Origin: Candidatus Kutchimonas denitrificans
GTDB lineage: Bacteria > Gemmatimonadota > Gemmatimonadetes > Palauibacterales > KS3-K002
Length of the DNA: 64,000 bases
Reading direction: 5' to 3'
NCBI GenBank assembly: GCA_011774835.1
Contig: JAACAK010000067.1
Location: 24,169 to 88,168, forward strand
The notes beneath the pieces were generated by a model. It was not told where the DNA came from and searched no databases. It saw nothing but the letters and a program-made list of their open reading frames with translations. Of the stretch, positions 5,632 through 35,113 are shown in pieces (the stretch's first letter is position 1; each line of letters begins with the position of its first letter). A program made the translations under genes and the position numbers.

Positions 5632-5991
5632 ATGCTGCGGGAGTATGTCCCGGTTCTGATGATCTTCGCTGCCAGCCTCGGCGTGGCTGTCATCATGGTC
5701 GTGGGCTCGCAAATCCTGAGCAATCGTCGACCCACGCCGGTAAAGAGCGAGCCCTACGAGTCGGGGATGCCCCCGATCGGCGATACGCGGGAGCGCTTCG
5801 CCGTGAAGTACTACGTGGTGGCGATGCTTTTCCTGCTGTTCGACGTTGAAGTCGTCATCCTGTTTACGTGGGGCATCGTCTTCAAGTCGCTGGGCTTGTT
5901 CGGCTACGTGACCATTCTGATTTTTCTCTTGCTTCTCGTGGTCGGACTGCTCTACGAGTGGAGAAAAGGCGCTCTCGAGTGGGAACGCTGA
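5632..5991 (+). CDS. nuoA: NADH-quinone oxidoreductase subunit A
   Basis: 119-aa, three-TM protein with the conserved NuoA/ND3 core (…EPYESGMPPIGDTRERFAVKYY…). Confidence 0.9.
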   Translation: MLREYVPVLMIFAASLGVAVIMVVGSQILSNRRPTPVKSEPYESGMPPIGDTRERFAVKYYVVAMLFLLFDVEVVILFTWGIVFKSLGLFGYVTILIFLLLLVVGLLYEWRKGALEWER

Positions 5992-6049
5992 GGGCTAGAA
6001 TTCCACGGAAATGACAGCCAGATCGACAAGATCTGAAGGATAAAATCAT

Positions 6050-6724: not shown

Positions 6725-6830
6725 ACCGCCTGACGGGTGCCCGCCATCCCTCAGGCCCTCGAGCCCGATCGATCGCTCCCCTCGGATCGGCGATCGATCG
6801 GTGCGACCGTGAACGATAGGAAGTGGGAGT

Positions 6831-8657
6831 ATGTCGTCGACCACGACCTCCGACAATATCGATAAAGGTGCAGGCCCGGTCGCGCCGGGAGAGCGTCAGG
6901 ACGTCGCCCAGCTGAAGACGAAGTTCGGCCCGGCGATCCGCTCGATCGAGCTCGATGCGGCGGATGAGCCCGTGGTCTACATCGCGCCCGATCGCAACAC
7001 CGAGATCCTCCAGTACCTCCGTGACGAGCAGGGGTACGACATGCTGCGCGACGTCACGGGGCTCGATTGGGGAGGCGGCCGGCCGATCCAGGTCGTCTAC
7101 GAGCTCTGGGCGTCGGAGCGCCGACTGCCGCTTCGGGTCAAGGCGGAGGTGCCGCCGAGCAATCCGAGGCTGCAGACCGCGTTCGGCATCTGGCATGCCG
7201 CGAATTGGCTCGAGCGGGAAGCCTACGACATGTTCGGGGTGAAGTTCGACGGTCACCCCGACCTCCGGCGCATCCTGATGCCGGAGAACTACGAGGAGGG
7301 CTACCCGCTGCGGAAGGACTTCCCGCTGCGCGGCCGCTTCACCCGCGCCGAGCAGACGCGGCGCGCCCTGGCCCGCGATCTGGAGGACATCTACAGCCTC
7401 GAGGAGCTGGCGGTCGCCAGCCGCGAGACGCGTACGGCGCCGCGGGGGCTGGGGGTCACGGCCGAAATCCCGACCGACGTGCCGGATCTCGAGGCCAAGC
7501 ACATGATCCTGAACATCGGGCCACAGCACCCAGCGACCCACGGGGTGTTGCGACTCGTGGTGGAGCTGGACGGCGAGACGATCGTCAAGTGCACGCCGCA
7601 CATCGGGTACCTGCACACCGGGTTCGAGAAGCTGAGCGAGTACCGTACCTGGAACCAGGTCATCCCGCTCACCGACCGGATGGATTACCTGGCCCCGATG
7701 ATCTACAACATCGGCTACGCCCTCGGCGTGGAGAAGCTGCTCGGCCTGGAGGTCACGCCTCGCTGCAAGGTGATCCGGGTCATCTGCATGGAGCTGAATC
7801 GGATCTTCTCGCACCTGATCTGGATCGGGACCACCGCCATCGACATCGGCGCCTTCACCCCCTTCCTCTACACGTTCGAGGAGCGGGAGCGGATCTACAA
7901 CCTGCACGAGGCCTACACCGGCGCCCGCATGACGACCAGCGTCAGCCGAATCGGCGGCATGATGGCCGATGTGCCGCCCGGCTGGCTCGACGCGGTTCGG
8001 TACTTCATCGAGACGTTCCCCAACACGCTGGACGAAGTGGAACGGCTGCTGAGCCAGAACGCGATCTGGATCGGCCGCACGCAGGGCGTCGGCGTGATGG
8101 GCGCGGCCGAGGCCACCAACGCCGGACTCTGCGGGCCCAACCTGCGGGCCTCCGGCGTGCCCTACGACGTTCGTAAAGACAACCCGTACCTCGAGTACGA
8201 GACGTACGACTTCGATGTGCCGATCGGCGAGTACGGCGACGTCTACGACCGCTACCTGGTCCGCATGGAGGAGATGCGGCAGTCGGTCCGGATCATCGAG
8301 CAGGCGCTCGACAGGGTGCCGGACGGGCCGATCAACGTGAAGGATGACCGGGTCATTCTGCCGCCCAAATCGAGGGTGATGAACTCGATCGACGGCATGA
8401 TCGCTCACTTCAAGCTGGTGATGGAGGGGCTCAAGGTGCCGGCCGGCGAGACCTGGTACTCGGTCGAGAGCTCGAAGGGCGAGCTCGGGTTCTATCTGGT
8501 CTCGGACGGCGGACCGAAGCCGGTCCGCTGCCGTTACCGCGGACCCTCTTTCATGAACATGTCCAACCTGCCGGCTCTGGTGAAAGGCGAGCTGGTCGCC
8601 GACATCATCGCCGTGAACGCGAGCATCGACATCGTGCTCGGGGAGATCGATCGATGA
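6831..8657 (+). CDS. nuoCD: NADH-quinone oxidoreductase fused subunit C/D
   Basis: 608 aa. N-terminal NuoC (30-kDa subunit) domain and C-terminal NuoD (49-kDa, NiFe-hydrogenase large-subunit-like) domain in one reading frame. Confidence 0.9.
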   Translation: MSSTTTSDNIDKGAGPVAPGERQDVAQLKTKFGPAIRSIELDAADEPVVYIAPDRNTEILQYLRDEQGYDMLRDVTGLDWGGGRPIQVVYELWASERRLPLRVKAEVPPSNPRLQTAFGIWHAANWLEREAYDMFGVKFDGHPDLRRILMPENYEEGYPLRKDFPLRGRFTRAEQTRRALARDLEDIYSLEELAVASRETRTAPRGLGVTAEIPTDVPDLEAKHMILNIGPQHPATHGVLRLVVELDGETIVKCTPHIGYLHTGFEKLSEYRTWNQVIPLTDRMDYLAPMIYNIGYALGVEKLLGLEVTPRCKVIRVICMELNRIFSHLIWIGTTAIDIGAFTPFLYTFEERERIYNLHEAYTGARMTTSVSRIGGMMADVPPGWLDAVRYFIETFPNTLDEVERLLSQNAIWIGRTQGVGVMGAAEATNAGLCGPNLRASGVPYDVRKDNPYLEYETYDFDVPIGEYGDVYDRYLVRMEEMRQSVRIIEQALDRVPDGPINVKDDRVILPPKSRVMNSIDGMIAHFKLVMEGLKVPAGETWYSVESSKGELGFYLVSDGGPKPVRCRYRGPSFMNMSNLPALVKGELVADIIAVNASIDIVLGEIDR

Positions 8658-9193
8658 GCGACGGGTTGCATCCAGCCGTCGTCAGCGCGCAGCCGTCGCA
8701 GCGCGATGAGAAGAATCCCGACGCCCCCCTCTTCGAGGGCGAGTATCAGGATCGACTGGAGAAGATCCTGAGCCGTTATCCCTTCAAACGAGCCGCCCTG
8801 CTGCCCGTGCTGAACATGGCGCAGCAGGTGAGGGGCTGGATTTCGCCGGATACGATCAAGCGGGTGGCCGAGATCCTCGAGCTTTCGCCGGCCTACGTGA
8901 GATCGGTGGCGTCGTTCTATACCATGTTCCAGCTGCGGCCGGCTGGCAAATACCTGATCCAGGTGTGCACAGGGATCGGCTGCGACCTCTGCGGCGCCGA
9001 GGACGTCGTCGAGGGCCTGCTGAAAGCGACGGGAACGCGGATCGGCGAGACGTCGGCGGACGGCAAGTACACGGTGGTGGAGGTCGAGTGCCTCGCCGGC
9101 TGCGGCTTCCCGACCATGGTTCAGATCAACGACAGGATGTACGAGAACGTGAAGGCCGAGGACGTTGAGGGCCTGCTGAAGGAACTGGACTGA
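8654..9193 (+). CDS. nuoE: NADH-quinone oxidoreductase subunit E ([2Fe-2S], 24-kDa subunit)
   Basis: Thioredoxin-like [2Fe-2S] motif (CTGIGCDLCGAEDV…CLAGCG). Start overlaps the nuoCD stop. Confidence 0.9.
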   Translation: MSDGLHPAVVSAQPSQRDEKNPDAPLFEGEYQDRLEKILSRYPFKRAALLPVLNMAQQVRGWISPDTIKRVAEILELSPAYVRSVASFYTMFQLRPAGKYLIQVCTGIGCDLCGAEDVVEGLLKATGTRIGETSADGKYTVVEVECLAGCGFPTMVQINDRMYENVKAEDVEGLLKELD

Positions 9194-9196
9194 GCG

Positions 9197-10486
9197 ATGG
9201 CCTACCCTCACGCGCATCCGCGCGAGGTCCGGCTCCTATCGAAGTACTTCGGTGACGAGGACGCGATCGGCATCGAAGGGTGGGCCGAGCGCGGTGGCTA
9301 CGTGGCGCTCGAGAAGGCTCTCGAGATGGGGCCCGACGAGGTCACCGAGGTGGTCAAGGAGTCCGGGCTGCGTGGCCGGGGCGGGGCGGGGTTCCCCGCC
9401 GGCCTGAAGTGGAGCTTCATGCCCAAGGACGGCAAGCGTCCGAACTACCTCGCCTGCAACGCCGACGAGAGCGAGCCCGGCACCTTCAAGGATCGGGAGA
9501 TCATGCGCTGGACGCCGCACCAGATGATCGAAGGGATCATCATCTGCAGCTACGCCATCCGGGCGCAGCACGCCTACATCTATATCCGCGGCGAGATGGT
9601 CGACGTGGTGCGCGTGGTCAACGACGCGGTCGTCGAGGCCTATCGCAAGGGCTATCTGGGCGAGAACATCCTGGGCTCGGGCTACGACCTGGAGCTCACC
9701 GTCCACCTCGGCGCGGGCGCCTATATCGCCGGCGAGGAGACAGGTCTCCTGAGCTCGCTGGAGGGACGTCGCGCCGAGCCCAAAGTCAAGCCGCCGTTCC
9801 CGGCGCAGCGGGGCGCGTTCGGGATGCCGACCACGGTGAACAACGTGGAGACGCTGGCGGCGGTGCCGCACATCGTGGAGAACGGCGCCGATTGGTACCG
9901 CCAGTGGGGCACCGAGAAGAGCCCCGGCACGAAGCTCTTTTCGTGCTGCGGTCACCTGCAGCGTCCCGGCAACTACGAGGTTTCCCTCGACTTCAATCTG
10001 AAGGAGCTGGTCTACGATCTGTGTGGCGGGCCACCGGAAGGGCGGCAGCTGCGGGCGGTCATCCCCGGCGGCTCCTCGGTGCCCCTGATGACGGTCGACG
10101 AGATCGACTGCGACGTGAGCTACGAGGGGATCGAGGCGGCCGGCTCGCTGCAGGGCTCGGGCGGGCTCATCGCGATCGATGACTCCGCCTGCTTGCTGCG
10201 ATCGATCCGCAAGATGGTCGATTTCTACGCCCACGAGTCGTGCGGCCAGTGCACGAACTGTCGCGAGGGGACCGTCTGGCTGGCGAACATCCTGCGGCGC
10301 ATCGAGCGGGGCGATGGCCGGGAGGAGGACCTGCCGCTACTGCTCGACGTCGGCGCCAACATGGCGGGGCGGACCATCTGCCCGCTGTCGGACAGCGCGG
10401 CGGTCCCGGTGGTCAGCGGCATCCAGAAGTTCGAGGAGGAGTTCGTGGCACATATCAAGGACGGAACGTGCACGGCGGTGCGCTGA
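9197..10486 (+). CDS. nuoF: NADH-quinone oxidoreductase subunit F (FMN/NADH-binding, 51-kDa subunit)
   Basis: GLRGRGGAGFP FMN motif and ESCGQCTNCREG [4Fe-4S] N3 motif. Confidence 0.9.
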   Translation: MAYPHAHPREVRLLSKYFGDEDAIGIEGWAERGGYVALEKALEMGPDEVTEVVKESGLRGRGGAGFPAGLKWSFMPKDGKRPNYLACNADESEPGTFKDREIMRWTPHQMIEGIIICSYAIRAQHAYIYIRGEMVDVVRVVNDAVVEAYRKGYLGENILGSGYDLELTVHLGAGAYIAGEETGLLSSLEGRRAEPKVKPPFPAQRGAFGMPTTVNNVETLAAVPHIVENGADWYRQWGTEKSPGTKLFSCCGHLQRPGNYEVSLDFNLKELVYDLCGGPPEGRQLRAVIPGGSSVPLMTVDEIDCDVSYEGIEAAGSLQGSGGLIAIDDSACLLRSIRKMVDFYAHESCGQCTNCREGTVWLANILRRIERGDGREEDLPLLLDVGANMAGRTICPLSDSAAVPVVSGIQKFEEEFVAHIKDGTCTAVR

Positions 10487-10511
10487 GGCGGCCGCCGCAT
10501 GACCGGGAAGA

Positions 10512-12104
10512 TTGTCGCGCATGAACGATGAGAAGAAACTGCTGAACGTCACGATAGACGGGGTCGAGCTCGAGGTCCCGGCGGGGACGACGATCCTCGC
10601 CGCGGCCGAACGGGTCGGTGCCGTGATCCCGCGCTACTGCTATCACCCGGGGCTCAGCGCGCCGGCGGTCTGCCGTATGTGTCTGGTCGAGGTCGAGGGC
10701 GCGCCCAAGCCGCTGGCCTCCTGCGTCCAGCCGGTACAGGACGACATGGTCGTGCACACCAACACGGCGCAGGCGCGCAAGGCGCGACGCGCCGCGGTGG
10801 AGTTCCTGCTGATGAACCACCCGCTCGACTGCCCGATCTGTGACGCGGCCGGCCAGTGCGAGCTGCAGGACTACGCGTTCGAGACGGGGCAGCTGAAGAC
10901 GCGCTACGTCGAGCCGAAGCTGGTGATGGGGCGCGACAAGGTCACGCCGGAGATCGTCTACTTCGCCGATCGCTGCATCCTCTGCACGCGCTGTGTCCGC
11001 TTCATGGACGAGATCGCCAAGGATCCGGTCCTGGTGGTGATCAACCGCGGGCAGCGGGGCTACATCGACACGATGACGGGCGAGCTGTTCGAGAACCCGT
11101 TCTCGATCAATATCGTCGACGTGTGCCCGGTGGGCGCGCTGGTGAACGAGGACTTCCTGTTCAAGGCGCGGGCCTGGGACCTGGACCAGACGGCGAGCAT
11201 CTGCCCGGGCTGCTCGCAGGGGTGCAACGTGTCGCTGGGGACCAAGGAGGAACGGATCGTCCGGGCCAAGCCGCGGTTCAACCCGGAGGTCAACTCGTAC
11301 TGGATGTGCGATCACGGGCGCAAGACGGTGATCAACTGGGGCGCCGGCGCGCGGATCGAGGTGCCCATGGCCCGCGACGGCGACGAGCTGAAGCCGGTCG
11401 ATTGGCCGCAGGCGCTGGACGCGCTGAGCGAGGCGATCGGGAATGAGCCGGGGAGGGCCCGGGCGATCGTGAGCGCCGGGGCTTCGAACGAGAGCCTGTT
11501 CACGCTGCGGCGTCTGATGGAGGAGCTCGGGTCGGACGGCGGTGTCTTCCGAGTCCCCACTGGCCCGGAGGCGGAGCTGCCCGGCTTCCCGAAGCTGAAG
11601 TTGCGCCGCGATCGGGTGCCCAACGCGAAGGGCGCCGAGCTCCTCGGCTTTCAGCGCTCGGACGCGGTCTTCGATTCGGCCCAGGGGCACCGGGGAGCTC
11701 TGTTCGTACTGGAGGACACGCTCGAGGGCGCGCCGGATGGATTCGGCACGAACGCGGAGCTCTTCGTCTACATCGGGACCCGCTTGAACCCGGCTGCCCG
11801 TTCGGCGGACATTGTCTTGCCGTCCACGACCTTCGCGGAGATGGCGGGCACCTTCACCAACTTCGAGGGGCGCGTCCAGCGCTTCGAGCAGGCGCTTCGA
11901 GGGCCGGGTCTGGCCCGACCCTGGTGGCTCACCGGGTCGGCGCTCCTCGAGCGTCTGGGGGCCGGCGGCCGCTACCGGACGGCGGCCGAGGTGTTCGCTG
12001 CTCTGGCGTCGGAGGTGAGCGAGTACGAGGGCCTGAATTACGAGGTGCTGGGTCTGAAGGGCGCCGGCGCGCCGGGATCGAGCGCCGCCGCCACCGCGGG
12101 CTGA
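10512..12104 (+). CDS. nuoG: NADH-quinone oxidoreductase subunit G, short form (N-terminal Fe-S domains only)
   Basis: N-terminal 2Fe-2S ferredoxin-like domain, HPLDCPICDAAGQCELQ and CILCTRCVRF 4Fe-4S motifs. Only 530 aa, so most of the molybdopterin-oxidoreductase-like C-terminal domain is absent. Confidence 0.85.
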   Translation: MSRMNDEKKLLNVTIDGVELEVPAGTTILAAAERVGAVIPRYCYHPGLSAPAVCRMCLVEVEGAPKPLASCVQPVQDDMVVHTNTAQARKARRAAVEFLLMNHPLDCPICDAAGQCELQDYAFETGQLKTRYVEPKLVMGRDKVTPEIVYFADRCILCTRCVRFMDEIAKDPVLVVINRGQRGYIDTMTGELFENPFSINIVDVCPVGALVNEDFLFKARAWDLDQTASICPGCSQGCNVSLGTKEERIVRAKPRFNPEVNSYWMCDHGRKTVINWGAGARIEVPMARDGDELKPVDWPQALDALSEAIGNEPGRARAIVSAGASNESLFTLRRLMEELGSDGGVFRVPTGPEAELPGFPKLKLRRDRVPNAKGAELLGFQRSDAVFDSAQGHRGALFVLEDTLEGAPDGFGTNAELFVYIGTRLNPAARSADIVLPSTTFAEMAGTFTNFEGRVQRFEQALRGPGLARPWWLTGSALLERLGAGGRYRTAAEVFAALASEVSEYEGLNYEVLGLKGAGAPGSSAAATAG

Positions 12105-12120
12105 GAAACGAGGCGATAGA

Positions 12121-13383
12121 ATGGGCCCACTCTCTACCAAAGCGTTCTTGATCATCGGCGCGGCGAAGATGCTGATGATCTTCGTCGGCTGGCTGACCGC
12201 GGTGGCGGGCGTGACGCTGGCCGAGCGGAAGATCGCCGCCTGGATACAGGACCGGAGCGGACCGAACCGGGTCGGCCCGTGGGGCCTGTTCCAGCCGATC
12301 GCCGACGGGCTCAAGAACTTCCTGAAGGAAGAGGTCCGCCCGGCCGGCTCGTCGCGCTGGGTCTTCTACCTGGCGCCGGTCATCTCGATGTTCCCGGCCA
12401 TGGTCGTGTTCGCCGTGATCCCCATCGCCGCGCCGCTGCCGACCCGCTGGGGGACCGTGAACATGATCGTGGCCGATCTGCCCATCGGGATCCTCTACAT
12501 ACTGGCCATCGCGTCGCTGGGCGTTTACGGCCTGGTGCTCGGCGGCTGGTCGTCCAACAGCAAGTACTCGTTCCTGGGCGGCGTGCGGGCTTCGGCCCAG
12601 ATGATCAGCTACGAGGTCGCCCTGGGCCTGAGCCTGGTGCCGATCCTGATGGTCGCGGGCAACGTCACGCTGCCGCAGCTGGTGAGCCAGCAGCAGGACG
12701 CGCTCTGGTACATCCTGCCGCTCATGGTGGGGTACCTGTTCCTGACCGCGTCGTACTTCGCCGAGACGAACCGGCTGCCGTTCGACATGCCGGAGGCGGA
12801 GTCCGAGCTGGTCGCCGGCTTCCACACCGAGTACTCGGCGATGAAGTTCGCCATGTTCATGCTGGCCGAGTACGCCAACATGGTCACCGCTGCGGCGCTC
12901 ATGGCCACGCTGTTCTTCGGCGGCTGGGACATCCCGTTCTGGTCGGGCGACAACATGACCCTGGCGGCCGACGGCTCGGTCGCCGGCGCGGCGCCGGCCT
13001 GGTGGAAGACGACCCTGACCGGCCTCTGCTTCGCCGCGAAGACCGGGTTCTTCATCCTGGTCTTCATCTGGGTGCGCTGGACCGTTCCGCGCTTCCGTTA
13101 CGACCAGGTCATGTCGCTGGGCTGGAAAGTTCTGATCCCGATGGAGGTCGTGTACGTCGCGCTGCTGGGCGGGGCGATGCTGTATCTCGATTACCTGGGG
13201 ATCCCATTCGGCACCCGGTACGCCCTCTATCTGACGGCGCTCAACGTGGTCCTGATGCTGGTCATCGTGTTCGTGGTGGACCGGAATCGTATCATCCTGG
13301 GTGCCGGCTGGAGACAGACGAGACCGCAACGAGTGAAATCGGAGTGGATAGAATATGCCGATAGGCGTCAAGACAGTCGATAG
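12121..13383 (+). CDS. nuoH: NADH-quinone oxidoreductase subunit H
   Basis: Multi-TM ND1 family (…ERKIAAWIQDRSGPNRVGPWGLFQPIADGLK…), with a ~60-aa C-terminal extension. Confidence 0.9.
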   Translation: MGPLSTKAFLIIGAAKMLMIFVGWLTAVAGVTLAERKIAAWIQDRSGPNRVGPWGLFQPIADGLKNFLKEEVRPAGSSRWVFYLAPVISMFPAMVVFAVIPIAAPLPTRWGTVNMIVADLPIGILYILAIASLGVYGLVLGGWSSNSKYSFLGGVRASAQMISYEVALGLSLVPILMVAGNVTLPQLVSQQQDALWYILPLMVGYLFLTASYFAETNRLPFDMPEAESELVAGFHTEYSAMKFAMFMLAEYANMVTAAALMATLFFGGWDIPFWSGDNMTLAADGSVAGAAPAWWKTTLTGLCFAAKTGFFILVFIWVRWTVPRFRYDQVMSLGWKVLIPMEVVYVALLGGAMLYLDYLGIPFGTRYALYLTALNVVLMLVIVFVVDRNRIILGAGWRQTRPQRVKSEWIEYADRRQDSR

Positions 13384-13852
13384 ACCGGAAGTCGAATCTT
13401 CGTACCTGCGGGCCACGCTCAAGGGGATGGCTCTGACCTTCAAACACCTGGTCCGGCCGGTGACCGCCTCCCAGCAGTATCCCGAGGAGAAATACGAGGT
13501 CTCCCCCCGTTGGCGCGGAACCCATCGGATGGCGGTCCACGTGGACGGGCGCGCGAAGTGCGTCGCCTGCGGCCTCTGCCCGACGGTCTGCCCGGCGAAC
13601 TGCATCAAGCTGATCCCGGCCGAGGACGAGAACGGCGAGCGGTACGCGGCGGTCTACGAGATCGACGAGTTCCGCTGCATCTTCTGCGGCTACTGCCAGG
13701 AGGTGTGCCCGGTCGAGGCGATACACGTCGGAGTTCACTACGAGAACGCCGAATACAGCCGCGAGCGGTTCGTCTACGACCTCGAGCGGCTTTGTGCCCA
13801 GAAGCACCCCTTCACCCAACTCTGGGATCCGGAGGACCCGGCTTCCGAATAG
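13355..13852 (+). CDS. nuoI: NADH-quinone oxidoreductase subunit I (2×[4Fe-4S])
   Basis: Two CxxCxxCxxxCP ferredoxin motifs (CVACGLCPTVCP; CIFCGYCQEVCP). Start overlaps the nuoH 3' end. Confidence 0.88.
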   Translation: MPIGVKTVDRPEVESSYLRATLKGMALTFKHLVRPVTASQQYPEEKYEVSPRWRGTHRMAVHVDGRAKCVACGLCPTVCPANCIKLIPAEDENGERYAAVYEIDEFRCIFCGYCQEVCPVEAIHVGVHYENAEYSRERFVYDLERLCAQKHPFTQLWDPEDPASE

Positions 13853-13892
13853 CGAGCGTGAGCCCTAGGGAGACCGCAGAGACAGAGGGGAA

Positions 13893-14405
13893 ATGGACTT
13901 TACTCAGCTGATCTTTTATGTGGCCGCCGGCCTGGCCGTGGTCAGCAGCCTTCTGATGATCACGCGCAAGAATCCGGTCTTCAGCGCCATGTTCCTGATC
14001 GTCGCACTCTTCTCGATCGCCACGATCTTCGTGCTGCTGGGAGCCCACTTCCTGGCCGCGCTGCAGGTGATCGTCTACGCCGGCGCGATCATGGTGCTGT
14101 TCCTGTTCGTCATCATGCTGCTCAACCTGGGTCATGATTTCGAGCCCGACATACGCGGGCGTCTGGGATGGGCGTTCATGGGCGGTCTCGGCCTGGTCCT
14201 GTTCGCCGAGATCCTGACCGCGGTGCAGGGCGCCCCCGGGGATGCGGGGGGTGACGTGTTGACGCCCTGGTTCGAGGCCAAGGGCGTGGTCGCCGGCGTG
14301 GCGGAGCCGCTGTTCCGCGACTACGCGGTGGCGGTCGAGATCACCGGCGTGCTCCTGTTGGTGGCGATGGTCGGTGCCGTGGTCATCGCCAGGAGGGAGG
14401 CCTGA
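13893..14405 (+). CDS. nuoJ: NADH-quinone oxidoreductase subunit J
   Basis: 170-aa hydrophobic ND6-like protein, positioned between nuoI and nuoK. Confidence 0.85.
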
Positions 14406-14409
14406 CGAC

Positions 14410-14696
14410 ATGGTCACCGAAGCCCTGATCCTCAGCGGCCTGTTGTTCACGATCGGTGCGGCCGGCGTGCTGATCCGCCGCAACGCGATCGTCATGTTCA
14501 TGTGCATCGAGCTCATGCTCAACGCCGTGAACCTCTCGTTCATCGCCATCTCCCGACAGGTGGGAGTTTCGGCGCAGCTGTTCGTGATCTTCGTCATGAC
14601 CGTGGCGGCGGCCGAAGCGGCGGTCGGGCTGGCCATCATCATCTCGATCTTCCGTCATTACAGCTCGGTTGACGTCAGGAACTTCAGGTTACTGAG

Positions 14697-14703
<7 letters not shown>
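14410..14703 (+). CDS. nuoK: NADH-quinone oxidoreductase subunit K
   Basis: ~98-aa three-TM ND4L-like protein (…[18 protein letters not shown]…). ATG at 14410 chosen over the 14374 start, which overlaps nuoJ. Confidence 0.88.
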
Positions 14704-16772
<2,069 letters not shown>

Positions 16773-16788
16773 GGACTGGTTCGGGAAG

Positions 16789-18363
16789 ATGTCCTTTCTA
16801 AATGACCTGTACAGCGGGCCCTGGATCGTAACGTTCCTGGTCTTCTTCCCCGGGATCGCCGGCCTCGCCTGCCTGTTCATCCCCCGCGGGTGGCTGAAGC
16901 GGTTCGCTTTTAGCGCGGGGTTGATCGAGTTCCTGGTCTCGCTGCCGATGTTCTGGACGTTCGGGATCGGCCGGATCGAATACCAGAACTACGTCTCGAT
17001 CCCCTGGATTCCCGATTGGGGCATCTCCTACGCCATCGGGGTCGATGGGATCTCCATTCTGCTGTTCCTGCTGACGACGTTCCTGCTGCCGATCTCGGTG
17101 CTGGTCTCGTGGGAACAGATCGACAAGCGCGAGCGGGCCTACTACGCGATGCTGTTGGTTCTGGTCACCGGGATCCTCGGCGTCTTCGTCGCGCTCGACC
17201 TGTTCCTCTTCTACGTGTTCTGGGAGGTCATGCTGGTCCCGATGTACTTCCTGATCGGGGTCTGGGGGCACGAGCGGCGGATCTACGCCGCGGTGAAGTT
17301 CTTCCTGTTCACGGCCTTCGGGTCGCTGCTCATGCTGGTCGCGATCCTGGTCCTGTTCTGGCTGCACCTCGATCAGTTCGGGGTGGCCAGCATGGCCTAC
17401 CCCGCGATGTTGCGGCTCGACATACCGGGCGGCCTCGAGTTCTGGTTGTTCGTGGCCTTCGCGTTGGCGTTCGCGATCAAGGTGCCGATGTTCCCGTTCC
17501 ACACCTGGCTGCCCGACGCGCACGTCGAGGCGCCGACGGCCGGCTCGGTCATCCTGGCGGCGGTCCTGCTGAAGATGGGCGTCTACGGGTTCCTGCGGTT
17601 CGCGATCCCGCTGTTTCCCAACGCGGCGCTCGACCCACGGGTCGTGATGACGATGCTGGTTCTGGGCTTGATCGGAATCACATACGCGGCGTGGGTGGCG
17701 GCCATGCAGCCTAACTTGAAAAAGTTGATCGCGTACACCTCGGTCGCCCACCTCGGTTTCGTGATGGTGGGCACCTTCGCGTTCACCGGGACGTCGGTCG
17801 CCGGCGGCGTGCTCCAGATGGTGAACCACGGCGTCTCGACCGGTGCCCTGTTCATCCTGGCCGGCTTCCTCTACCAGCGGCGGCACACTTACGAGATCGC
17901 GCAGTACGGAGGGCTGGCGAAGGTGATCCCGGTCTTCTGTTTCGCGCTGGTCCTGACGGCGCTGGCGTCCATCGGGTTGCCTGGGCTGAACGGATTCGTC
18001 GGCGAGTTCCTGATCCTGGTTGGCAGCTTCCTCAGATACCCGTGGGTCACCCTGGTGGCGGCGACGGGAGTGATCTTCGCCGCCTATTACATGTTGCCGA
18101 TGATCCGGCGCGTCGTTTGGAACGATCTAACGGTCGAAGAGAACCGCAGTCTGATCGACCTGTCACGGCTCGAGCTGGCGATCATCGTGCCGCTCCTGCT
18201 CATGATGGTGCTGATGGGGGTCTACCCGAAGCCGTTCATCGACCGGGTCGCGGCGTCGGCCAACTGGTTGAGCGAGCGTGTCGAGTTGACGATTCAGGCT
18301 GACACCGCCGATGACGCGCTCGCCGCCGCGGAGGTGCTGGAGAGGTCACCGCGAACCCCATGA
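16789..18363 (+). CDS. nuoM: NADH-quinone oxidoreductase subunit M
   Basis: 524-aa ND4-like antiporter-type subunit. Confidence 0.9.
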   Translation: MSFLNDLYSGPWIVTFLVFFPGIAGLACLFIPRGWLKRFAFSAGLIEFLVSLPMFWTFGIGRIEYQNYVSIPWIPDWGISYAIGVDGISILLFLLTTFLLPISVLVSWEQIDKRERAYYAMLLVLVTGILGVFVALDLFLFYVFWEVMLVPMYFLIGVWGHERRIYAAVKFFLFTAFGSLLMLVAILVLFWLHLDQFGVASMAYPAMLRLDIPGGLEFWLFVAFALAFAIKVPMFPFHTWLPDAHVEAPTAGSVILAAVLLKMGVYGFLRFAIPLFPNAALDPRVVMTMLVLGLIGITYAAWVAAMQPNLKKLIAYTSVAHLGFVMVGTFAFTGTSVAGGVLQMVNHGVSTGALFILAGFLYQRRHTYEIAQYGGLAKVIPVFCFALVLTALASIGLPGLNGFVGEFLILVGSFLRYPWVTLVAATGVIFAAYYMLPMIRRVVWNDLTVEENRSLIDLSRLELAIIVPLLLMMVLMGVYPKPFIDRVAASANWLSERVELTIQADTADDALAAAEVLERSPRTP

Positions 18364-19877
18364 ATACCGCGATGCACTTAGAGTTCACGAGTCAACTCGA
18401 TTACCTGTGGGCGCTGATGCCGGAAGCGGTTCTGGCGACCGGGGCGCTCATCCTGCTGCTGTATGACGGCTTCTTCGGCGGCGATTCGTCGGACAACCGG
18501 GCGGTGGGCTGGGGGAGCATGGTGATCATAGCGCTGGCCGCCGTGGCCAACGTGTGGCTGATGGGTGTGGAGGAAGTCGGCGACACCGGGATGGTCGCGC
18601 TCGATGGGTTCCGGACGTTCACGAACTTCATCTTCCTCGCCGCGGGGGCGCTGATCGTCCTGATCAGCTTCGACTACAACCGGCGCGAGGATATCAAGGA
18701 CGCCGAGTACTACGCTCTGCTGCTCTTCGCCCTGGTCGGCATGATGATCCTGGCAGGAAGCCGTGACCTGATCCTGATCTTCCTCGGGTTCGAGCTGATG
18801 TCGCTGGCCGTGTATGTGCTGGTGGGGTTCAACCGCAAAGATCCGAGGTCGTCGGAGGCATCGCTGAAGTACTTCCTGCTGGGCGCCTTCGCCAGCGCCT
18901 TCCTGCTCTACGGCATGGCGCTGCTGGTGGGCAGCGCCGGCACGACGAACATCGGGCTCATGGGGGTCATGCTGAACGCGGAGTCGGCGGAGTTGCTGAC
19001 GGTGATGGCGTTAGCGCTGCTGGCGATCGGCTTCGGGTTCAAGGTCTCGGCCGTCCCGTTCCACGTCTGGACCCCGGACGCCTACGAGGGCGCACCGACG
19101 CCGGTGACGGCCTTCCTGGGCGCCGCCATCAAGGGCGCCGCGTTCGCCGCGTTCATACGCATCTTCGTCCTCGGACTGGGTGACTTCCATGCCCAGTGGG
19201 AAGCGATCATCTGGTGGTTCGCGGCCTTGACGATGATCGTTCCGAACCTGATCGCGCTGGTCCAGAACAACATCAAGCGCCTGCTCGCCTACAGCTCGAT
19301 CGCCCACGCGGGTTATCTGCTGGTCGCGCTGATCGCCGCCAACACTTCGGGGATGGCGTCGTTCCTGTTCTATCTCATCGCATACACGGCGATGATCGTG
19401 GGCGCCTTCGCGATCGTGCTGGTGTTGGCGGGGAGGGGCGACCGTTATCAGCAGCTGTCCGACTACGACGGGCTCGGCTGGAGCCGGCCATGGGCCGCGG
19501 CGCTGCTGGCTCTGTTCCTCGTTTCGCTTGCCGGGTTGCCGCCGACGGCGGGGTTCGTGGGCAAGTTCTACATCTTGAGAGCGGCCGTCGAGGCCGGCTA
19601 CCTGAATCTGGCGATCCTGCTGGTGCTGACCACACTCGTATCGTACTGGTACTATCTGCGAGTGATCGTCAACATGTACATGAAGCCGTCGGCAGAGGCG
19701 CGTGAAGGCGTGGCCTGGGCGGCCTCGCTCCGGACCGTGCTCGCCGTTTGCGCGATCATCACCGTTCTGATGGGGATTTTCCCGTCCTGGCCACTGCTCA
19801 AGGCACGGCAAAGCGTGGCCGGACTGCGGCAGGCCACCGAGCAGGTCGTCGAGACCGACCCTCTGACGCGACGGTAG
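18360..19877 (+). CDS. nuoN: NADH-quinone oxidoreductase subunit N
   Basis: 505-aa ND2-like subunit. ATGA overlap with nuoM. Confidence 0.9.
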   Translation: MNTAMHLEFTSQLDYLWALMPEAVLATGALILLLYDGFFGGDSSDNRAVGWGSMVIIALAAVANVWLMGVEEVGDTGMVALDGFRTFTNFIFLAAGALIVLISFDYNRREDIKDAEYYALLLFALVGMMILAGSRDLILIFLGFELMSLAVYVLVGFNRKDPRSSEASLKYFLLGAFASAFLLYGMALLVGSAGTTNIGLMGVMLNAESAELLTVMALALLAIGFGFKVSAVPFHVWTPDAYEGAPTPVTAFLGAAIKGAAFAAFIRIFVLGLGDFHAQWEAIIWWFAALTMIVPNLIALVQNNIKRLLAYSSIAHAGYLLVALIAANTSGMASFLFYLIAYTAMIVGAFAIVLVLAGRGDRYQQLSDYDGLGWSRPWAAALLALFLVSLAGLPPTAGFVGKFYILRAAVEAGYLNLAILLVLTTLVSYWYYLRVIVNMYMKPSAEAREGVAWAASLRTVLAVCAIITVLMGIFPSWPLLKARQSVAGLRQATEQVVETDPLTRR

Positions 19878-21301: not shown

Positions 21302-21341
21302 CGAGAAGCGCCGTGGCCCCCGGGGTTGCCAGAATACACAC

Positions 21342-21368
21342 AACGGGACAGGGCCGCCTGTCCCGTTC
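21342..21368 (+). terminator. Stem-loop (11-bp perfect stem, weak U tail) downstream of the nuo–phosphohexomutase unit
   Basis: AACGGGACAGG-gccg-CCTGTCCCGTT, 40 nt after the stop. Only 'TT' follows, so it may be factor-dependent or purely structural. Confidence 0.55.
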
Positions 21369-21592
21369 CGGTTGCGACCGCGGCCGCGGTCCGGGTATCA
21401 TAGCCCACGCTCCAGCCGTCATCGCGTTCAGGGAACGGCCCATCGAGGCACGCCTTCTGCATGGGATCAAATGGTCCCTTTGCGATAGGGAGCCGATGAG
21501 GATCAGGGCGCTGGCCAGCTGAACGGCGCGGGAGAGAGCTCGCGTCCGGGCCGTCGCGCCCGATCAACCATAGAGACAAGGGCGAAAGCGAT

Positions 21593-22729
21593 ATGAACAT
21601 CCACGAGTACCAGGCGAAGGAGATCTTCAGGGAGCATGGCATCCCCGTGCCTCCCGGCGAAGTGGCGACGACGCCGGCCGAGGCCGAAGAGATCGCTTCG
21701 CGCTTCGGTGGCGGGGTGGTGGTGAAGGCGCAGGTCCACGCCGGAGGACGGGGCAAAGCCGGCGGTGTGAAACTGGCCTCGAACGCGAAGGACGCGCGAA
21801 AGGCGGCGGAGAAGATCCTCGGCATGGAGATCAAGGGCCTCACCGTTCGCAAGGTGCTGGTGAGTCCGGCGGAGGACATCGCGCACGAGGCCTATCTGGG
21901 CGCCATCGTTGACCGGGCCAACGGTGCCGTCGTTCTGATGGCCTCGCCCGAAGGGGGAATCGACATCGAGGAGGTCGCGGCCAAAACGCCCGAGCGGATT
22001 TTCAAGGAGGAGGTCGATGCCCGTTACGGTCTGCTCGAACACCAGGCATCGCGGCTCGCTTTCAAGCTGTACCCGAACGATGCATCTCGTGCGCGGCAGG
22101 CGGCGGACATCATCGACAAGCTCTACGCCTCGATGATCGACGCCGGCGCTTCGCTGATCGAGATCAATCCACTGATCACCACGGAATCCGGTGAACTGAA
22201 GGCGATCGACGCCAAGCTGAACGTCGATGACAACGAGCTCTTGCGCAAAGAGAAGATCGCCGAGCTGCGCGACGTCGAGAGCGAAGCTTCCGAGGAGGTG
22301 AAGGCGCGCTCTCAGGGTCTGACCTACATCAAGTTGGATGGTGACGTGGGCTGCTGCGTAAACGGAGCGGGGCTGGCGATGGCCACGATGGACCTGGTGA
22401 AGTACTACGGCGGCGAGCCCGCCAACTTCCTGGACATCGGAGGCTCCTCCAGCCCGGAGAAGGTAGTCACGGCGCTGGAGATCATCACCGCCGATCCGTC
22501 GGTCAAGTCGATCCTGTTCAACATCTTCGGAGGGATTACGCGCTGCGACGATGTCGCCAACGGGATCGTCGAGGCCACCGAACAGATCGAGTTGGGTGTT
22601 CCGATCACGATTCGCCTGACCGGCACCAACGAGGAGCAGGCGGTAGAGATTCTCGAGGATGCCGGCTTCAGCGCGATGACCGACATGGACGAGGCGGTGA
22701 AAAAGGCCGTCGAATTGGCGAAGAACTAG
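21593..22729 (+). CDS. sucC: Succinyl-CoA ligase [ADP-forming] β subunit
   Basis: [12 protein letters not shown]… N-terminus and ATP-grasp domain. Confidence 0.92.
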
Positions 22730-22746: not shown

Positions 22747-23622
22747 ATGGCAATATTCGCGGATAGCAGCACCAGGGTGGTGGTCCAGGGGATCACCGGG
22801 CGCGACGGGTCGTTCCACACCCGCCAGATGATGGAATACGGCACGAAGATCGTCGCCGGCGTCACCCCCGGCAAAGGCGGCCAGAAGTTCGACGACGAGG
22901 TGCCGATCTTCAATACGGTGGAGGAGGCGGTCGAGGAAACGGGCGCCAACGCCAGCGTCATCTACGTGCCGGCGCGCTTCGCGGCGGAGGCGATCTGCGA
23001 GGCGGCGGATTCGGGCGTCGAGCTGGTGGTTTGCATCTCCGAGGGCATCCCGGTGCTCGACATGTTGCGTGCCACCCGTTACGTGCGGGACCACGGGTCT
23101 CGTCTCATCGGACCGAATTGTCCGGGGATGATCTCGCCGGGCGAGACCAAGCTGGGGATCATACCGGGGCAGATCGTGGAAAAGGGGCCGATCGGTGTAA
23201 TCAGCCGCTCGGGAACCCTCACCTACGAGGTCGTCTGGGCCCTCACGCAGGCGGGACTGGGCCAATCGAGTTGCATCGGCATCGGTGGCGACCCCGTCAT
23301 CGGGACCAGCTTCATCGACTGCCTCGAGGCGTTCGAGAACGACTCGAGCACCGGTGCCGTCGTGCTGATCGGAGAGATCGGGGGCACCGACGAGCAGAAC
23401 GCTGCCAGCTACGTCAAGGAGCACATGTCGAAGCCCGTCGTCGGGTTCGTGGCCGGCCAGACCGCACCGCCAGGACGACGTATGGGACATGCAGGCGCGA
23501 TCATCTCCGGTTCCGCCGGGACGGCGGAGGAGAAGATCGATACCTTTAGGGAAAACGGCGTCGAGGTGGCCGAGCGCCCGGCGGAGATGCCCAAGATCCT
23601 CTCGAAGGTGATGAATGGATAA
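22747..23622 (+). CDS. sucD: Succinyl-CoA ligase α subunit
   Basis: CoA-binding and phospho-His loop (…[10 protein letters not shown]…). Confidence 0.92.
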
Positions 23623-24511
23623 CCCGACGACTATCTCGAGGCTGCTGCCCGCTGAGCACCTCGTCATCGGGCTGAAAGCCAGAACGCTCGAAGAAGCCCT
23701 CGGGCAGCTCATCGAGCGGCTCGATGAGGCCGATCAGATCACCGACCGGGCGGCGCTCGATGCGCTCGTCGCGGACGAGATCGAGAGCGGCGAGGCGCCC
23801 AGCCTGGGAGACCGGGCCATACTGATGCACTTCCGAACCGACGCAGTCGACGAATTGGTCGTGGCGGTGGGAACCGCGAACAAGCCGTTCGCCTTCGCAC
23901 CGGACGATTCACCCGAGGCCGATCTGCTGATCCTGATACTGACCCCCAGGACCGCCACCCGCCCTTACCTGAAGACCCTGGCGGCTCTCAGCGAGTTCCT
24001 CGCCGATCCAGCCATCCCGGATGCCCTGGTCTCCGCCGATTCGGTCGACGAGTTCCTCGATGTCGTCGCCAGCCGCGACCTGGTCATCCGGCCCGAGCTG
24101 ACCGTTCGCGACCTCATGAGCCGCGATGTCCACGCGGTCTCCCCCGAGACCCTGCTTTCGGAGGCGCTTCGACTCATGGCCCGCCACCGCCGACGCGGCG
24201 TGCCCGTCGTCAGCGACAACGGCGAGGTGCTGGGGATGGTCACCGAACAGGAGCTGCTGCAGCATTTTCTCCCCCAGATTCTCGGGACGGCGCCTCGTGA
24301 CGGCTCTCCGCCTCCGGTCAAGGACCTCGAGGTGCGCGACGTCATGCAGCGCAGCGTCATGTGCCTCCCGGAGGATCAGTTGATTTCGGATGTGCTCGGC
24401 ACCATGCTCACCGAGCGGGTCTCGCAGTTTCCCGTGGTGAAGGAGGGGAAGCTGGTCGGGTTCCTGTCCCGGACGGACCTTATCCAGAAACTACTTGAGA
24501 AATCGATATAG
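23615..24511 (+). CDS. PTS EIIA-2 (PtsN/EIIA-Ntr-like) domain fused to a CBS-domain pair
   Basis: N-terminal ~150 aa with EIIA-2-like layout and a His in …[10 protein letters not shown]…. Two C-terminal CBS repeats (…[15 protein letters not shown]… ; …[15 protein letters not shown]…). Start overlaps the sucD stop by 8 nt. Confidence 0.7.
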
Positions 24512-24519: not shown

Positions 24520-24954
24520 ATGGAATATACACTTGCAATCATCAAGCCCGACGCCATCCAGGGGGGCAAGGCGGGCCTGATCCTCAATCGGTTGGAGGAG
24601 GAGGGGTTCCGAATTCGGGCCGCGCGCCTGACCCGACTGACCGAGCCGGAGGCGGGGGAGCTCTACGCGGTACATCGTGGGCGGCCGTTCTACGAGGCGT
24701 TGAAGCGGTTCATGACGTCGGGTCCGATCCTGGCTCTCGCCTTGGAACGCGAGGATGCGGTGGCGTACCTGCGGAAGGTGATCGGGGCGACGGACCCGGC
24801 GCAGGCGGAGCGGGGGACGATCCGAGCGCTGTACGCGGAGAACAAGGAGCGGAACGCGATCCATGCGTCGGATTCGGAAGAGAACGCGCGACGGGAGGTG
24901 AGCTTCTTCTTTTCGGTCCAGGAGCTGTTGTGGACGGTTGAGGAACGGGGCTGA
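24520..24954 (+). CDS. ndk: Nucleoside diphosphate kinase
   Basis: …TLAIIKPDAIQ… and the conserved NDK active-site region (…NAIHASDS…). Confidence 0.92.
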   Translation: MEYTLAIIKPDAIQGGKAGLILNRLEEEGFRIRAARLTRLTEPEAGELYAVHRGRPFYEALKRFMTSGPILALALEREDAVAYLRKVIGATDPAQAERGTIRALYAENKERNAIHASDSEENARREVSFFFSVQELLWTVEERG

Positions 24955-25001
24955 ACCGCCTCACCTGCCGCGTTGACAGGGCCGGCACCCGCCAATAGAC
25001 T

Positions 25002-33529: not shown

Positions 33530-35113
33530 GTGAACAACCGAACGATATGTAAACGCGGGAGATACGTGGCAGGCTCGGGTCGAGGCGGACCCGGGGACCG
33601 CGACCCCCATCGTCCGGGCTCGGCCGCGGGTCGGCGGCGCTGGCGCCGACTGCTGGTGCCGTGGACCGTGGCCTGGGTTCTGTTCGGCGGCGCCGCGTCG
33701 GGGCAGGTGGTGGAGTTCCGTGCCGGCAGCGGCGGTCTGGCTCGAGCCGATGAGGTGGTGCGGAGCGTGCTGGCCCGGGGCGATTATGTGGTGCTCACGG
33801 CGGACCGCGTGCTGTCCCCCGGGGAGGTGATCGACGGGGATGTGATCGTGCTGGGGGCGACGCTGCGGGTGGAGGGCACGATCCGTGGCGATCTGGTTGG
33901 GGTTCAGAGCGACATATTCGCCCGGCCGGGTGGCGAGGTGGGAGGGACGGTCGTGGTGCTGGGCGGCGGCTTCTACGGCTCGACGCTGGCGCGACTGGCG
34001 CGGCGACCGGTGAGTGCGGCGGTCTACGGCTATACTTACGAGACGACGCGAGGCGGCGGCTACGCGATCGTCGCTCCGGGGGGGAGGGTAAGCCTGCGGC
34101 CCGCGGGGCTGTACGGGCTGCTGCTTCCGGAGTACGACCGTGTGAATGCGTTGACGATTCCGCTGGGGCTGGATTTCGATCGCGGGGGCATGTCCGCGTT
34201 GCCCGACGCGGAGTTGCGATTGAGGATCCGCAGCGCCCGGGAGATGTTGGACGGAGCCCTCAGGCTTCGCTGGCGAACCGGACGGCACGCGGTATCGCTG
34301 GCGGGAGGCCGCACCGTCAGAACGAACGACGGCTGGATCAACGGAGACGTGGACAACTCGCTCTATTCGTTCATCGGAGCGGTGGACACCCGCAACTACT
34401 ACGACGCCGACTTCGTGGCGGCGGGGATCGAACTGGGCTTCGGTTCGAACGCCCTATGGAACGCCGGGCTGACGCTCGGTTGGGAGCGCGCCCGGCCGCT
34501 GGCCAACGAGGACCCGTTCTCCCTGTTCGAGGTTCGGGCCGGCGGTTTCCAGCCCAACGCCCCGGCGCTCGCGGCCGATGCCGCCAGCCTGAAGCTGGCG
34601 GGCGGCGTAGCGACAGAACGCGCCGACGGCCCGGGCTTGACGGTCCAGGCCGAGCTCGAGATCGCCGACGACGCGGTGGCGGGCGACCTGACCTTCGCGT
34701 TGCTGGGCGGTGGCTTCCGTCTTCGCCTCCCCACGGTTGGACGCCAGGCGTTGGTGATCGAGGGGAGGGGACAGGCTTCGCTCGACGACGACGCGCCGCC
34801 CCAGCGCTGGCGGAGCCTGGGTGGCTGGGGGTCGCTCCCGACCCTCGTTCCCACCGGCCAGTCGGGCGACCGCATGTGGTGGACGGCGGCCACCTACCAG
34901 ATCCCACTCAGCGACCGGCTGGGCCGGCTGCCCTCCCCCTTCCTCTGGGTCCAATACGGGGCGGGCAACGCCTGGACCGCCGGTTCGCGACCCTCGACGG
35001 TCCACGATCTGGGCCTCGGCCTCACCTTCGGACCCCTGGCTCTGGCCCTCTACACGGCCCCCAGCGACGAGTTCAAGACGGTCTTCACCGTGGGCTTCGA
35101 CCCGCGCCACTGA
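33530..35113 (+). CDS. Exported hypothetical protein with a short bactofilin-like β-helical segment and a large Gly/Ala-rich C-terminal domain
   Basis: Arg-rich N-terminus followed by a hydrophobic stretch (…LLVPWTVAWVLFGGAASGQ…). A segment …DGDVIVLGATLRVEGTIRGDLVGVQSDIFARPGGEVGGTVVVLGGG… resembles bactofilin/polymer-forming repeats. No other family recognised; start codon uncertain. Confidence 0.5.
   Translation: MNNRTICKRGRYVAGSGRGGPGDRDPHRPGSAAGRRRWRRLLVPWTVAWVLFGGAASGQVVEFRAGSGGLARADEVVRSVLARGDYVVLTADRVLSPGEVIDGDVIVLGATLRVEGTIRGDLVGVQSDIFARPGGEVGGTVVVLGGGFYGSTLARLARRPVSAAVYGYTYETTRGGGYAIVAPGGRVSLRPAGLYGLLLPEYDRVNALTIPLGLDFDRGGMSALPDAELRLRIRSAREMLDGALRLRWRTGRHAVSLAGGRTVRTNDGWINGDVDNSLYSFIGAVDTRNYYDADFVAAGIELGFGSNALWNAGLTLGWERARPLANEDPFSLFEVRAGGFQPNAPALAADAASLKLAGGVATERADGPGLTVQAELEIADDAVAGDLTFALLGGGFRLRLPTVGRQALVIEGRGQASLDDDAPPQRWRSLGGWGSLPTLVPTGQSGDRMWWTAATYQIPLSDRLGRLPSPFLWVQYGAGNAWTAGSRPSTVHDLGLGLTFGPLALALYTAPSDEFKTVFTVGFDPRH

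Follow-up and report, generated by a model that had tools for sequence, protein, structure and literature searches.

Why does a bacterium keep, between its genes for succinyl-CoA synthetase (SCS) and nucleoside-diphosphate kinase (Ndk), a protein that joins an EIIA domain of the phosphotransferase system (PTS) to a pair of CBS repeats, and does this protein work through a phosphorylated His or through a bound ligand? The question is raised by a stretch of 64,000 nucleotides (nt) from Candidatus Kutchimonas denitrificans (Gemmatimonadota; contig JAACAK010000067.1), hereafter the window, in which an open reading frame (ORF) of 298 amino acids (aa), here called X, sits third in a sucC-sucD-X-ndk unit. 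A preliminary description, made from the sequence alone, had seen in X a possible carbon/nitrogen phosphorelay sensor of the PtsN (EIIA-Ntr) type that is tied to the tricarboxylic acid (TCA) cycle. Our findings lead us to favour, at about an even chance, a reading in which X is a nucleotide-sensing, trans-acting regulator of SCS and/or Ndk and in which phosphorylation of its candidate His is at most accessory. The unit is laid out as follows.

21593..22729, + strand: sucC, succinyl-CoA synthetase beta subunit, 378 aa (ATP-grasp_2, Ligase_CoA), 64-88% identical across related loci
22747..23622, + strand: sucD, succinyl-CoA synthetase alpha subunit, 291 aa
23615..23622, + strand: 8-nt overlap of the sucD stop with the X start (ATGAATGGATAA), with AAGGTG 4 nt upstream of the ATG
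23615..24511, + strand: X, EIIA-2-like plus CBS-pair protein, 298 aa
24520..24954, + strand: ndk, nucleoside-diphosphate kinase, 144 aa, starting 8 nt past the X stop

X starts at its first ATG, directly after an in-frame TGA, and the junction reads AAG GTG ATG AAT GGA TAA for sucD and A TGA ATG GAT AAC in the frame of X, which bears out the 8-nt overlap that had been reported. Overlap and tight spacing also agree with the earlier placing of X in the sucCD transcription unit, to which we add ndk, whose start 8 nt downstream had gone unmentioned. The parts of X that matter for the first half of the argument are these.

23642..24070, + strand: PtsN-like PTS_EIIA_2 domain (Pfam PF00359), aa 10-152
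23828-23830, + strand: codon of His72 (in AILMHFR), aligned with the phospho-His of PtsN and EIIA-Mtl
23966..23968, + strand: codon of Tyr118 ('PYLKTL' vs 'THLHTL'), at the second active-site His position of PtsN

The proposed fusion of an EIIA-2 domain to two CBS repeats is upheld by Pfam, with PF00359 matched at 58.2 bits against a gathering score of 27 (E=1.2e-15; profile positions 2-142 of 144) and PF00571 matched twice, in two stretches (E=4.6e-32; 110.6 bits against 24). Since the PF00359 match and the His are both present, X is not the generic CBS protein that it would have become had either been missing; that candidate, with an unrelated N-terminal domain, is rejected because PF00359 is clearly significant. 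Searched against solved structures with phmmer, the N-terminal 161 aa returned EIIA-2 proteins only, namely PtsN of Burkholderia (3urr, E=1.6e-7), Neisseria (2a0j) and E. coli (1a6j) and the EIIA-Mtl structure 1a3a. In all four alignments His72 falls on the phospho-His of the '..A[IV]PHG[RKT]' motif, His73 in E. coli PtsN and His65 in EIIA-Mtl, and the tentative placing of the His within AILMHFR was therefore right. In the same alignments Asp54 ('ADE' vs 'ARE') occupies the place of the PtsN active-site Arg (Arg57 in E. coli PtsN and Arg49 in EIIA-Mtl), Tyr118 stands where the second His would be (His120 and His111, respectively) and the invariant Arg74, two residues past the His, is aligned with R/K75 of PtsN. 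Sixty close homologues keep His72 (59/60), Arg74 (60/60), Asp76 (56/60) and Tyr118 (58/60) within a family-specific signature, H-[YF]-R-[ST]-D ... Y-L-[KQ]. As for orthology, the NCBIfam PtsN equivalog TIGR01419 gives 33.9 bits against a cut-off of 138.7, slightly less than the fructose-type IIA model TIGR00848 (39.6 against 103.5). As judged by these matches, the N-domain is an EIIA-2 domain but no PtsN orthologue; the latter candidate is rejected on the TIGR01419 score, on the size of a 298-aa two-domain protein and on a position that is not in an rpoN operon.

Nor did phosphoryl donors turn up nearby. Queried by phmmer with E. coli HPr, NPr, EI and PtsN and with B. subtilis HPr, the six-frame ORFs of the 64-kb window and of 86 related loci (~700 kb) contain no HPr, NPr or EI, and the E. 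coli PtsN query matched X only. Typically, if not universally, ptsN is found downstream of rpoN together with hpf, rapZ and ptsO. The window has an rpoN, 19 kb from X, and a series hpf-ptsN-rapZ-ptsO is absent after it.

43246-44685: rpoN, followed with a 4-nt overlap by a gene for a GT2 glycosyltransferase

A 2026 review places the nitrogen-related PTS (PTS-Ntr) in Proteobacteria, Chlamydiales, Spirochaetales and Planctomycetales and leaves Gemmatimonadota unmentioned (PMC13104625), and in the literature we found nothing on the PTS, PtsN or HPr content of Gemmatimonadota.

What the relatives of X have done with the His speaks to the question directly. Of 82 distinct orthologues taken from syntenic loci, 57 have His72 and 25 have A, L, I or G in its place; Tyr118 occurs in exactly the same 57, with K, R or Q in the remainder. 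On a neighbour-joining tree of concatenated SucC, SucD and Ndk, in which 23 of the His-less genomes could be included, these 23 group together in one clade that contains no His-bearing genome, which points to one loss of His72 followed by drift at that position. This clade makes up about a third to a half of the diversity of the family and retains both the gene and its position. Its members score below the Pfam threshold on PTS_EIIA_2 (22.8 or 14.3 bits) or give no match, their CBS scores being strong, and many Gemmatimonadota orthologues keep an 'LPH[FY]RT' motif, one of them ('LPHFRT', locus L036) reaching 72 bits on PF00359. To call the His-less version a decaying pseudodomain would be wrong, as the ratio of non-synonymous to synonymous substitution rates (dN/dS) of the N-domain lies at 0.07-0.3 in close pairs of the His-bearing and the His-less group alike (0.16 for loci L068/L077 and 0.10 for L056/L064, for example), which is purifying selection even without the His. 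A sample free of any retrieval pattern, drawn by an exhaustive HMMER search of 1.84 billion representatives clustered at 50% identity, yielded 485 proteins at E<=1e-30, and the best 150 of these included 99 two-domain proteins of ~300 aa, with the His present in 53 and absent from 46. Hence a large share of the family can, so far as sequences can tell, do without the His.

About 14 of the 99 representatives stand apart, sharing only 29-33% identity with the Gemmatimonadota set. These distant proteins carry the canonical motif GxG[VIF]A[FI]PH[AG]R, with Tyr at the second-His position, and because GxGxAxPH[AG]R is canonical throughout in the EIIA-CBS proteins of this outgroup, the family probably descends from a phosphorylatable ancestor. 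Three of them, from genomes of 29-54% G+C content (GC), were placed in their gene context, and none of the three adjoins sucD or ndk.

P0211 (GCA_037441845.1, 50% GC; locus L090, 6001-8110): DUF502 gene on one side; on the other a Na_Ca_ex gene 2 nt past the stop, then M48 and CNNM/CorC genes
P0180 (54% GC; locus L091, 6001-7292): overlapped by 4 nt by a gene that is truncated at the contig end and has a weak Na_Ca_ex match (19.2 bits, below threshold)
P0227 (29% GC): among amidase_3, Germane and TPR genes

From these contexts it follows that the architecture is a portable module and that its linkage to sucD and ndk is specific to Gemmatimonadota; a second branch of the family, linked to ion transport through a Na+/Ca2+ exchanger, may exist. 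The motifs form a series that runs from the canonical PH of the outgroup via 'LPH[FY]RT' in many Gemmatimonadota and 'AH[YF]R' in the clade of the window to no His at all, and this suggests that the phospho-site was lost progressively after capture of the module into the sucCD-ndk unit.

How tight is the bond to that unit? Some 100 clusters at 50% identity combine both Pfam domains, and those with a named organism all belong to Gemmatimonadota. The protein itself is on record in identical form from a Gemmatimonadetes metagenome-assembled genome (GCA_012974725.1, contig JABAHQ010000175.1) under the name 'CBS domain-containing protein'. An earlier judgement that the architecture is uncommon is only partly right in view of these ~100 clusters, some of which lie outside both the phylum and the operon. 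When one genome per GTDB species was scanned with a pattern from the second CBS motif (CBS2), R[DE][VAI]M[QT]R[ST]V[ML]C, 137 relatives were retrieved and 80 loci kept, all of them from Gemmatimonadota (Gemmatimonadales, Gemmatimonadaceae and Longimicrobiales, plus one 'uncultured bacterium'). Located by tBLASTn with the window's proteins, the order sucC-sucD-X-ndk is found in 86 of 86 Gemmatimonadota loci as far as the contigs reach, even where X has diverged to 30% identity, against 58-88% for SucC, SucD and Ndk. Between sucD and X the spacing is -8 nt in each of the 23 loci where X is at least 53% identical, that is, in the clade of the window, and elsewhere it ranges from -4 in four more distant loci up to about +100 to +180 nt in others; between X and ndk it extends from -4 to about +100 nt. 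The flanks vary: many genomes have an AA_kinase gene before sucC that is not in the window, pgm is often absent upstream, and ndk is followed in some loci by a holin-like gene, DUF4956 or several kb.

Turning to the C-terminal half, X carries two CBS motifs, a basic run and an unusual Cys, as listed here.

24104..24268, + strand: CBS motif 1 (CBS1), aa 164-218, with a GVPVV strand and a ribose-type GMVTEQE (aa 207-213)
24182-24196, + strand: basic run RHRRR (aa 190-194), before the GVPVV of CBS1
24323..24493, + strand: CBS motif 2, about aa 237-293, with QFPVV and GFLSRTD (aa 282-288); the most conserved part of X
24362-24364: codon of Cys250, in the first strand of CBS2 (VMCLPED)

Because both motifs keep an h-P-V-V strand and G-h-h-[ST]-x-x-[DE], columns that are 80-100% conserved among the 99 representatives, the pair is compatible with binding of an adenosine phosphate, and we infer that X may bind one. 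On average, pairs of sequences share 33% identity in the EIIA domain and 46% and 54% in the two CBS motifs, and dN/dS of the CBS pair (0.04-0.2) is two to three times tighter than that of the N-domain; by these measures the CBS pair is the most constrained part of X. An AlphaFold2 model of X, built on a 60-sequence alignment, shows an alpha/beta N-domain followed by two CBS units at a mean predicted local distance difference test (pLDDT) score of 92.8 and a predicted template-modelling (pTM) score of 0.83. Compared by Foldseek with the Protein Data Bank (PDB), the model retrieved Bateman modules only, and the top 13 matches are AcuB from Geobacillus and Bacillus in crystals with adenosine mono-, di- or triphosphate (AMP, ADP, ATP) or Ap4A (E about 1e-11, 134 aligned columns, 23-28% identity). 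These are followed by MJ0922, CBSX2-AMP, the CBS pair of a site-2 protease and MJ0100 with S-adenosylmethionine (SAM). The CBS-pair fold is recovered at a target-normalised template-modelling score (TM) of 0.76-0.87 to single Bateman modules, and no PDB entry in the Foldseek search covers both domains of X (query-normalised TM <=0.40), a full-model search in which the EIIA half is masked by the many CBS entries. In AcuB, Arg33 and His34 hold the nucleotide phosphates, and RHRRR of X stands at the corresponding place (PMC13121692). This run is kept in the close clade, with R190 across the family. Close homologues almost all have Cys250, as do 75 of the 99 unbiased representatives; CBS motifs do not usually have a Cys there, and it may point to a redox input.

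Taken in the order in which the protein would work, the reading that we favour sees X as a soluble regulatory protein specific to the sucC-sucD-X-ndk unit of Gemmatimonadota. Its C-terminal CBS pair would sense an adenosine-type ligand, most likely the AMP/ADP/ATP balance, and the state of the ligand would alter the contact that the PtsN-derived N-domain makes with a partner. The N-domain would thus serve PtsN-like protein-protein contact and have no role as phosphoryl donor. In this manner X would tune SCS, whose substrate-level phosphorylation yields nucleoside triphosphates (NTPs), and/or Ndk, through which that phosphate is shared out among NTPs. The core mechanism would not involve phosphorylation of His72, which could add no more than an accessory input, retained in some lineages, that of the window among them. 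What we infer here is that a nucleotide is bound, which partner is targeted and in which direction it is regulated. Precedent for contacts of this kind comes from PtsN itself, as SucC and SdhB were recovered in a pull-down with unphosphorylated E. coli PtsN, the PtsN of P. putida inhibits pyruvate dehydrogenase and none of the PtsN targets is known as a phospho-acceptor (PMC13104625). A portable regulator that acts on the product of the neighbouring gene also fits the distant relatives, which lie 2 nt before or in 4-nt overlap with a Na_Ca_ex gene.

Several points weigh against this. The clade of the window shows strong conservation of His72 (59/60) and of the H-[YF]-R-[ST]-D / Y-L-[KQ] residues around it, and on account of this conservation His72 clearly matters there. 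Retrieval by the CBS2 pattern inflates the invariance of the columns concerned and limits the taxonomic survey; the invariance of R241, M244, R246, V248 and C250 among the loci stems in part from the pattern itself and was cross-checked in the unbiased representatives. Much of the wider region (nuo, pgm, sucCD, ndk, yceD, rpmF, plsX, fab) is syntenic across the phylum as well, so adjacency alone could reflect a general stability of gene order. CBS pairs can bind other ligands (SAM, cyclic di-AMP (c-di-AMP), Mg2+) or none.

Could X nonetheless be what it was first taken for, the terminal phospho-acceptor of a PTS-Ntr-like relay, with EI or EI-Ntr and HPr or NPr encoded elsewhere and with the phosphorylation of His72, read together with the CBS ligand, coupling carbon/nitrogen status to the TCA cycle? 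The position of His72 on the phospho-His of four EIIA-2 structures, its presence next to an invariant Arg74 in nearly all close homologues, the canonical 'LPH[FY]RT' motif of many orthologues (with the 72 bits of L036 on PF00359) and the fully canonical motif of the outgroup all speak for it. To our minds it is unlikely, given that neither the 64-kb window nor the ~700 kb of related loci contain HPr, NPr or EI, that the window's rpoN lacks ptsN and ptsO, that Asp54 and Tyr118 replace the active-site Arg and the second His in a protein far below the TIGR01419 cut-off, and that a whole clade has given up the His and kept both gene and constraint; the published distribution of PTS-Ntr, too, goes without Gemmatimonadota (PMC13104625). 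On the same grounds the phosphorelay role proposed in the preliminary description, that of a PtsN-type carbon/nitrogen sensor, is not sustained. Rather improbable, too, is that X is unconnected with SCS and Ndk and is co-transcribed with them by accident, its target lying elsewhere, for example in ion transport. Gene order in the block nuoN-pgm-sucCD-X-ndk-yceD-rpmF-plsX-fabHDG is indeed largely shared across the phylum, the outgroup has EIIA-CBS genes coupled to Na_Ca_ex with CNNM/CorC nearby, and most proteobacterial PtsN targets are K+ transport systems (PMC13104625). Yet the flanks vary around a sucD-X-ndk core that is unbroken in 86 loci, start/stop overlaps with sucD and ndk recur, and no Gemmatimonadota locus has an adjacent transporter gene.

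A phosphohistidine relay that needs no PTS may also be envisaged, since both neighbours of X have catalytic His motifs.

23488-23490, + strand: codon of the SucD catalytic phospho-His248, in RMGHAGA
24862-24864, + strand: codon of the Ndk catalytic His115, in NAIHASD

In the His-bearing Gemmatimonadota, this genome among them, the PtsN-like domain would have been rewired away from the PTS. His72 would then be charged by SucD~P (His248) or Ndk~P (His115), or pass phosphate between them, so that X~P reports flux; the CBS pair would gate the transfer at His72 by adenylate charge and thereby read substrate-level phosphorylation in the TCA cycle. Such traffic has parallels, in that mitochondrial nucleoside-diphosphate kinase is reported to phosphorylate the catalytic His of SCS and to form a complex with it (PMC7461546), and in that SixA acts on NPr and on Ndk in E. 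coli, so that one partner already serves phosphohistidines of the PTS type and of Ndk (PMC12934123). Conservation of His72 in a lineage with no PTS partner in sight would likewise be accounted for. All of this is purely circumstantial, the His-less clade retains the same operon, and the phospho-His of Ndk sits at the base of the nucleotide cleft, where it is poorly accessible to proteins (PMC12934123). We therefore regard the relay as a long shot. No EIIA domain, moreover, is known to receive its phosphate from a donor other than one of HPr type. Set beside these alternatives, regulation of SCS and/or Ndk by a nucleotide-loaded X still seems to us the better account of a sensor whose gene stays in place when its phospho-site does not.

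As regards the borders of the unit, sites that resemble a promoter or a terminator are absent from within sucC-sucD-X-ndk in the window, and promoter-like sites flank it on both sides.

21342-21367: 11-bp GC-rich hairpin, downstream of the phosphoglucomutase gene and before the promoter-like match of sucC
21372..21401, + strand: sigma-70-like promoter match TTGCGA-18-TATCAT, upstream of sucC
24973..25001, + strand: sigma-70-like promoter match TTGACA-17-TAGACT (10/12), past ndk and before yceD-rpmF-plsX; consensus only

The match on the sucC side is a consensus match only and for that reason weak evidence for the start of the unit; the one past ndk suggests that sucC-sucD-X-ndk may be a unit separate from the downstream fatty-acid and ribosomal genes. 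An Rfam scan of the window found no RNA family, hence no riboswitch or leader at sucC. The spacer upstream of sucC in the window (21302-21592) measures 291 nt, and there the relatives have a gene of the AA_kinase family (about 315-322 aa), between pgm (or UPF0182) and sucC, with a 4-nt gap to sucC or a 4-nt overlap (L005); in the lineage of the window this gene has been lost or moved. At the other end, a small membrane protein gene of the Phage_holin_4_2 family lies after ndk and before yceD in some relatives.

L001 3027-3974, L003 3023-3973 and L005 3025-3993: AA_kinase-family gene before sucC
L004 4061-4435 (4-nt overlap with ndk) and L006 1747-2112: Phage_holin_4_2-family gene

Since malate dehydrogenase and the whole nuo operon precede pgm-sucCD, a stretch of 25 kb brings together several functions of respiration and the TCA cycle. 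Further downstream the window's rpoN closes a complete lipopolysaccharide (LPS)/sigma-54 cluster, beyond whose rpoN-GT2 pair follow genes for PMT_2, UDP-GlcNAc 2-epimerase and GT4 (envelope glycosylation). Three long ORFs have no Pfam match, and of these the 813-aa and 524-aa ones lie inside a glycosyltransferase/LPG_synthase cluster and the 515-aa one after a xerC-like integrase gene.

1248-2237: malate dehydrogenase (mdh)
about 5500-19877: nuo (complex I) operon
33530-35113: ORF of 515 aa
35263-48455: LPS/sigma-54 cluster with kdsB, pyrG, kdsA, kdsC, kdsD (SIS+CBS), lptC, an unknown gene, an lptB-like gene and rpoN
40712-42049: protein of 445 aa, no Pfam match
42052-43230: lptB-like ABC ATPase, called at 392 aa, which is long for LptB
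49542-51983: ORF of 813 aa
53869-55443: ORF of 524 aa

The genes that remain in the window include an M28 peptidase gene, pgm, fab genes, ispF, the xerC-like gene, pcm, surE, gpsA, plsY and der, next to the mdh and nuo genes already named.

What would follow if our favoured reading were true? X would be a new regulatory subunit of SCS and/or Ndk, a core enzyme pair, and would parallel AcuB and AMPK gamma. Little is known of the post-translational regulation of bacterial SCS and Ndk, and here a whole phylum keeps a sensor gene between the two. As SCS is the sole step of substrate-level phosphorylation in the TCA cycle, X would tune the production or distribution of NTPs. The family also offers a clean natural experiment in the evolution of a PTS EIIA domain into a phosphorylation-independent interaction module, and for annotation it is a warning that not every PF00359 match should be read as evidence of a PTS. 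We found no description in the literature of a fusion of EIIA and CBS domains associated with succinyl-CoA synthetase, and the fusion, its phylum-wide insertion between sucD and ndk and the decay of its phospho-site under selection appear to be undescribed in the literature searched and in database names. The domains as such, like the ideas of a CBS sensor and of a PtsN-type regulator, are already known, and no unusual chemistry or mechanism is demonstrated.

Among known systems, PtsN/EIIA-Ntr resembles X in fold family over the full length of the domain, in the match of His72 to its phospho-His and of Arg74 to its R/K, and in that X is soluble, has no EIIB/EIIC partner and probably acts by protein binding. 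It differs in that X is twice as big and has a CBS pair (298 aa vs about 150-165 aa in a single domain), carries Asp54 and Tyr118 and lies outside an rpoN operon, and in that the His is lost in a large sister clade. The distant EIIA-CBS proteins P0211, P0180 and P0227 share the architecture, the size of ~300 aa and the Tyr at the second-His position with X, but at 29-33% identity and with a canonical PH motif, and two of the three are immediately followed by a Na_Ca_ex gene. Stand-alone CBS-pair regulators (DarB/CbpB, CBSX1/2, AMPK gamma, MJ1225), which X matches in sequence and fold, likewise use a ligand-switched Bateman module to regulate another protein, but have no EIIA domain and respond to c-di-AMP or AMP; X is not a member of CbpB, as it scores 32.4 bits on that NCBIfam model against a cut-off of 125. 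An instructive analogue is AcuB, a small soluble Bateman-module protein and energy-charge sensor of the acu operon that binds and inhibits AcuC according to its loading with AMP, ADP or ATP (PMC13121692). AcuB (PDB 9s4v-9s52, 9qs7) gives the best structural and best-class sequence matches of X and is, as X would be, an in-operon regulator in trans. It has, however, a C-terminal ACT domain as its partner domain, as against the N-terminal EIIA of X, its target is a deacetylase that controls acetyl-CoA synthetase, and it belongs to Firmicutes; Pfam finds no ACT domain in X, and X is not in an acuABC operon. X is AcuB-like in its working at most and not a member of the AcuB family.

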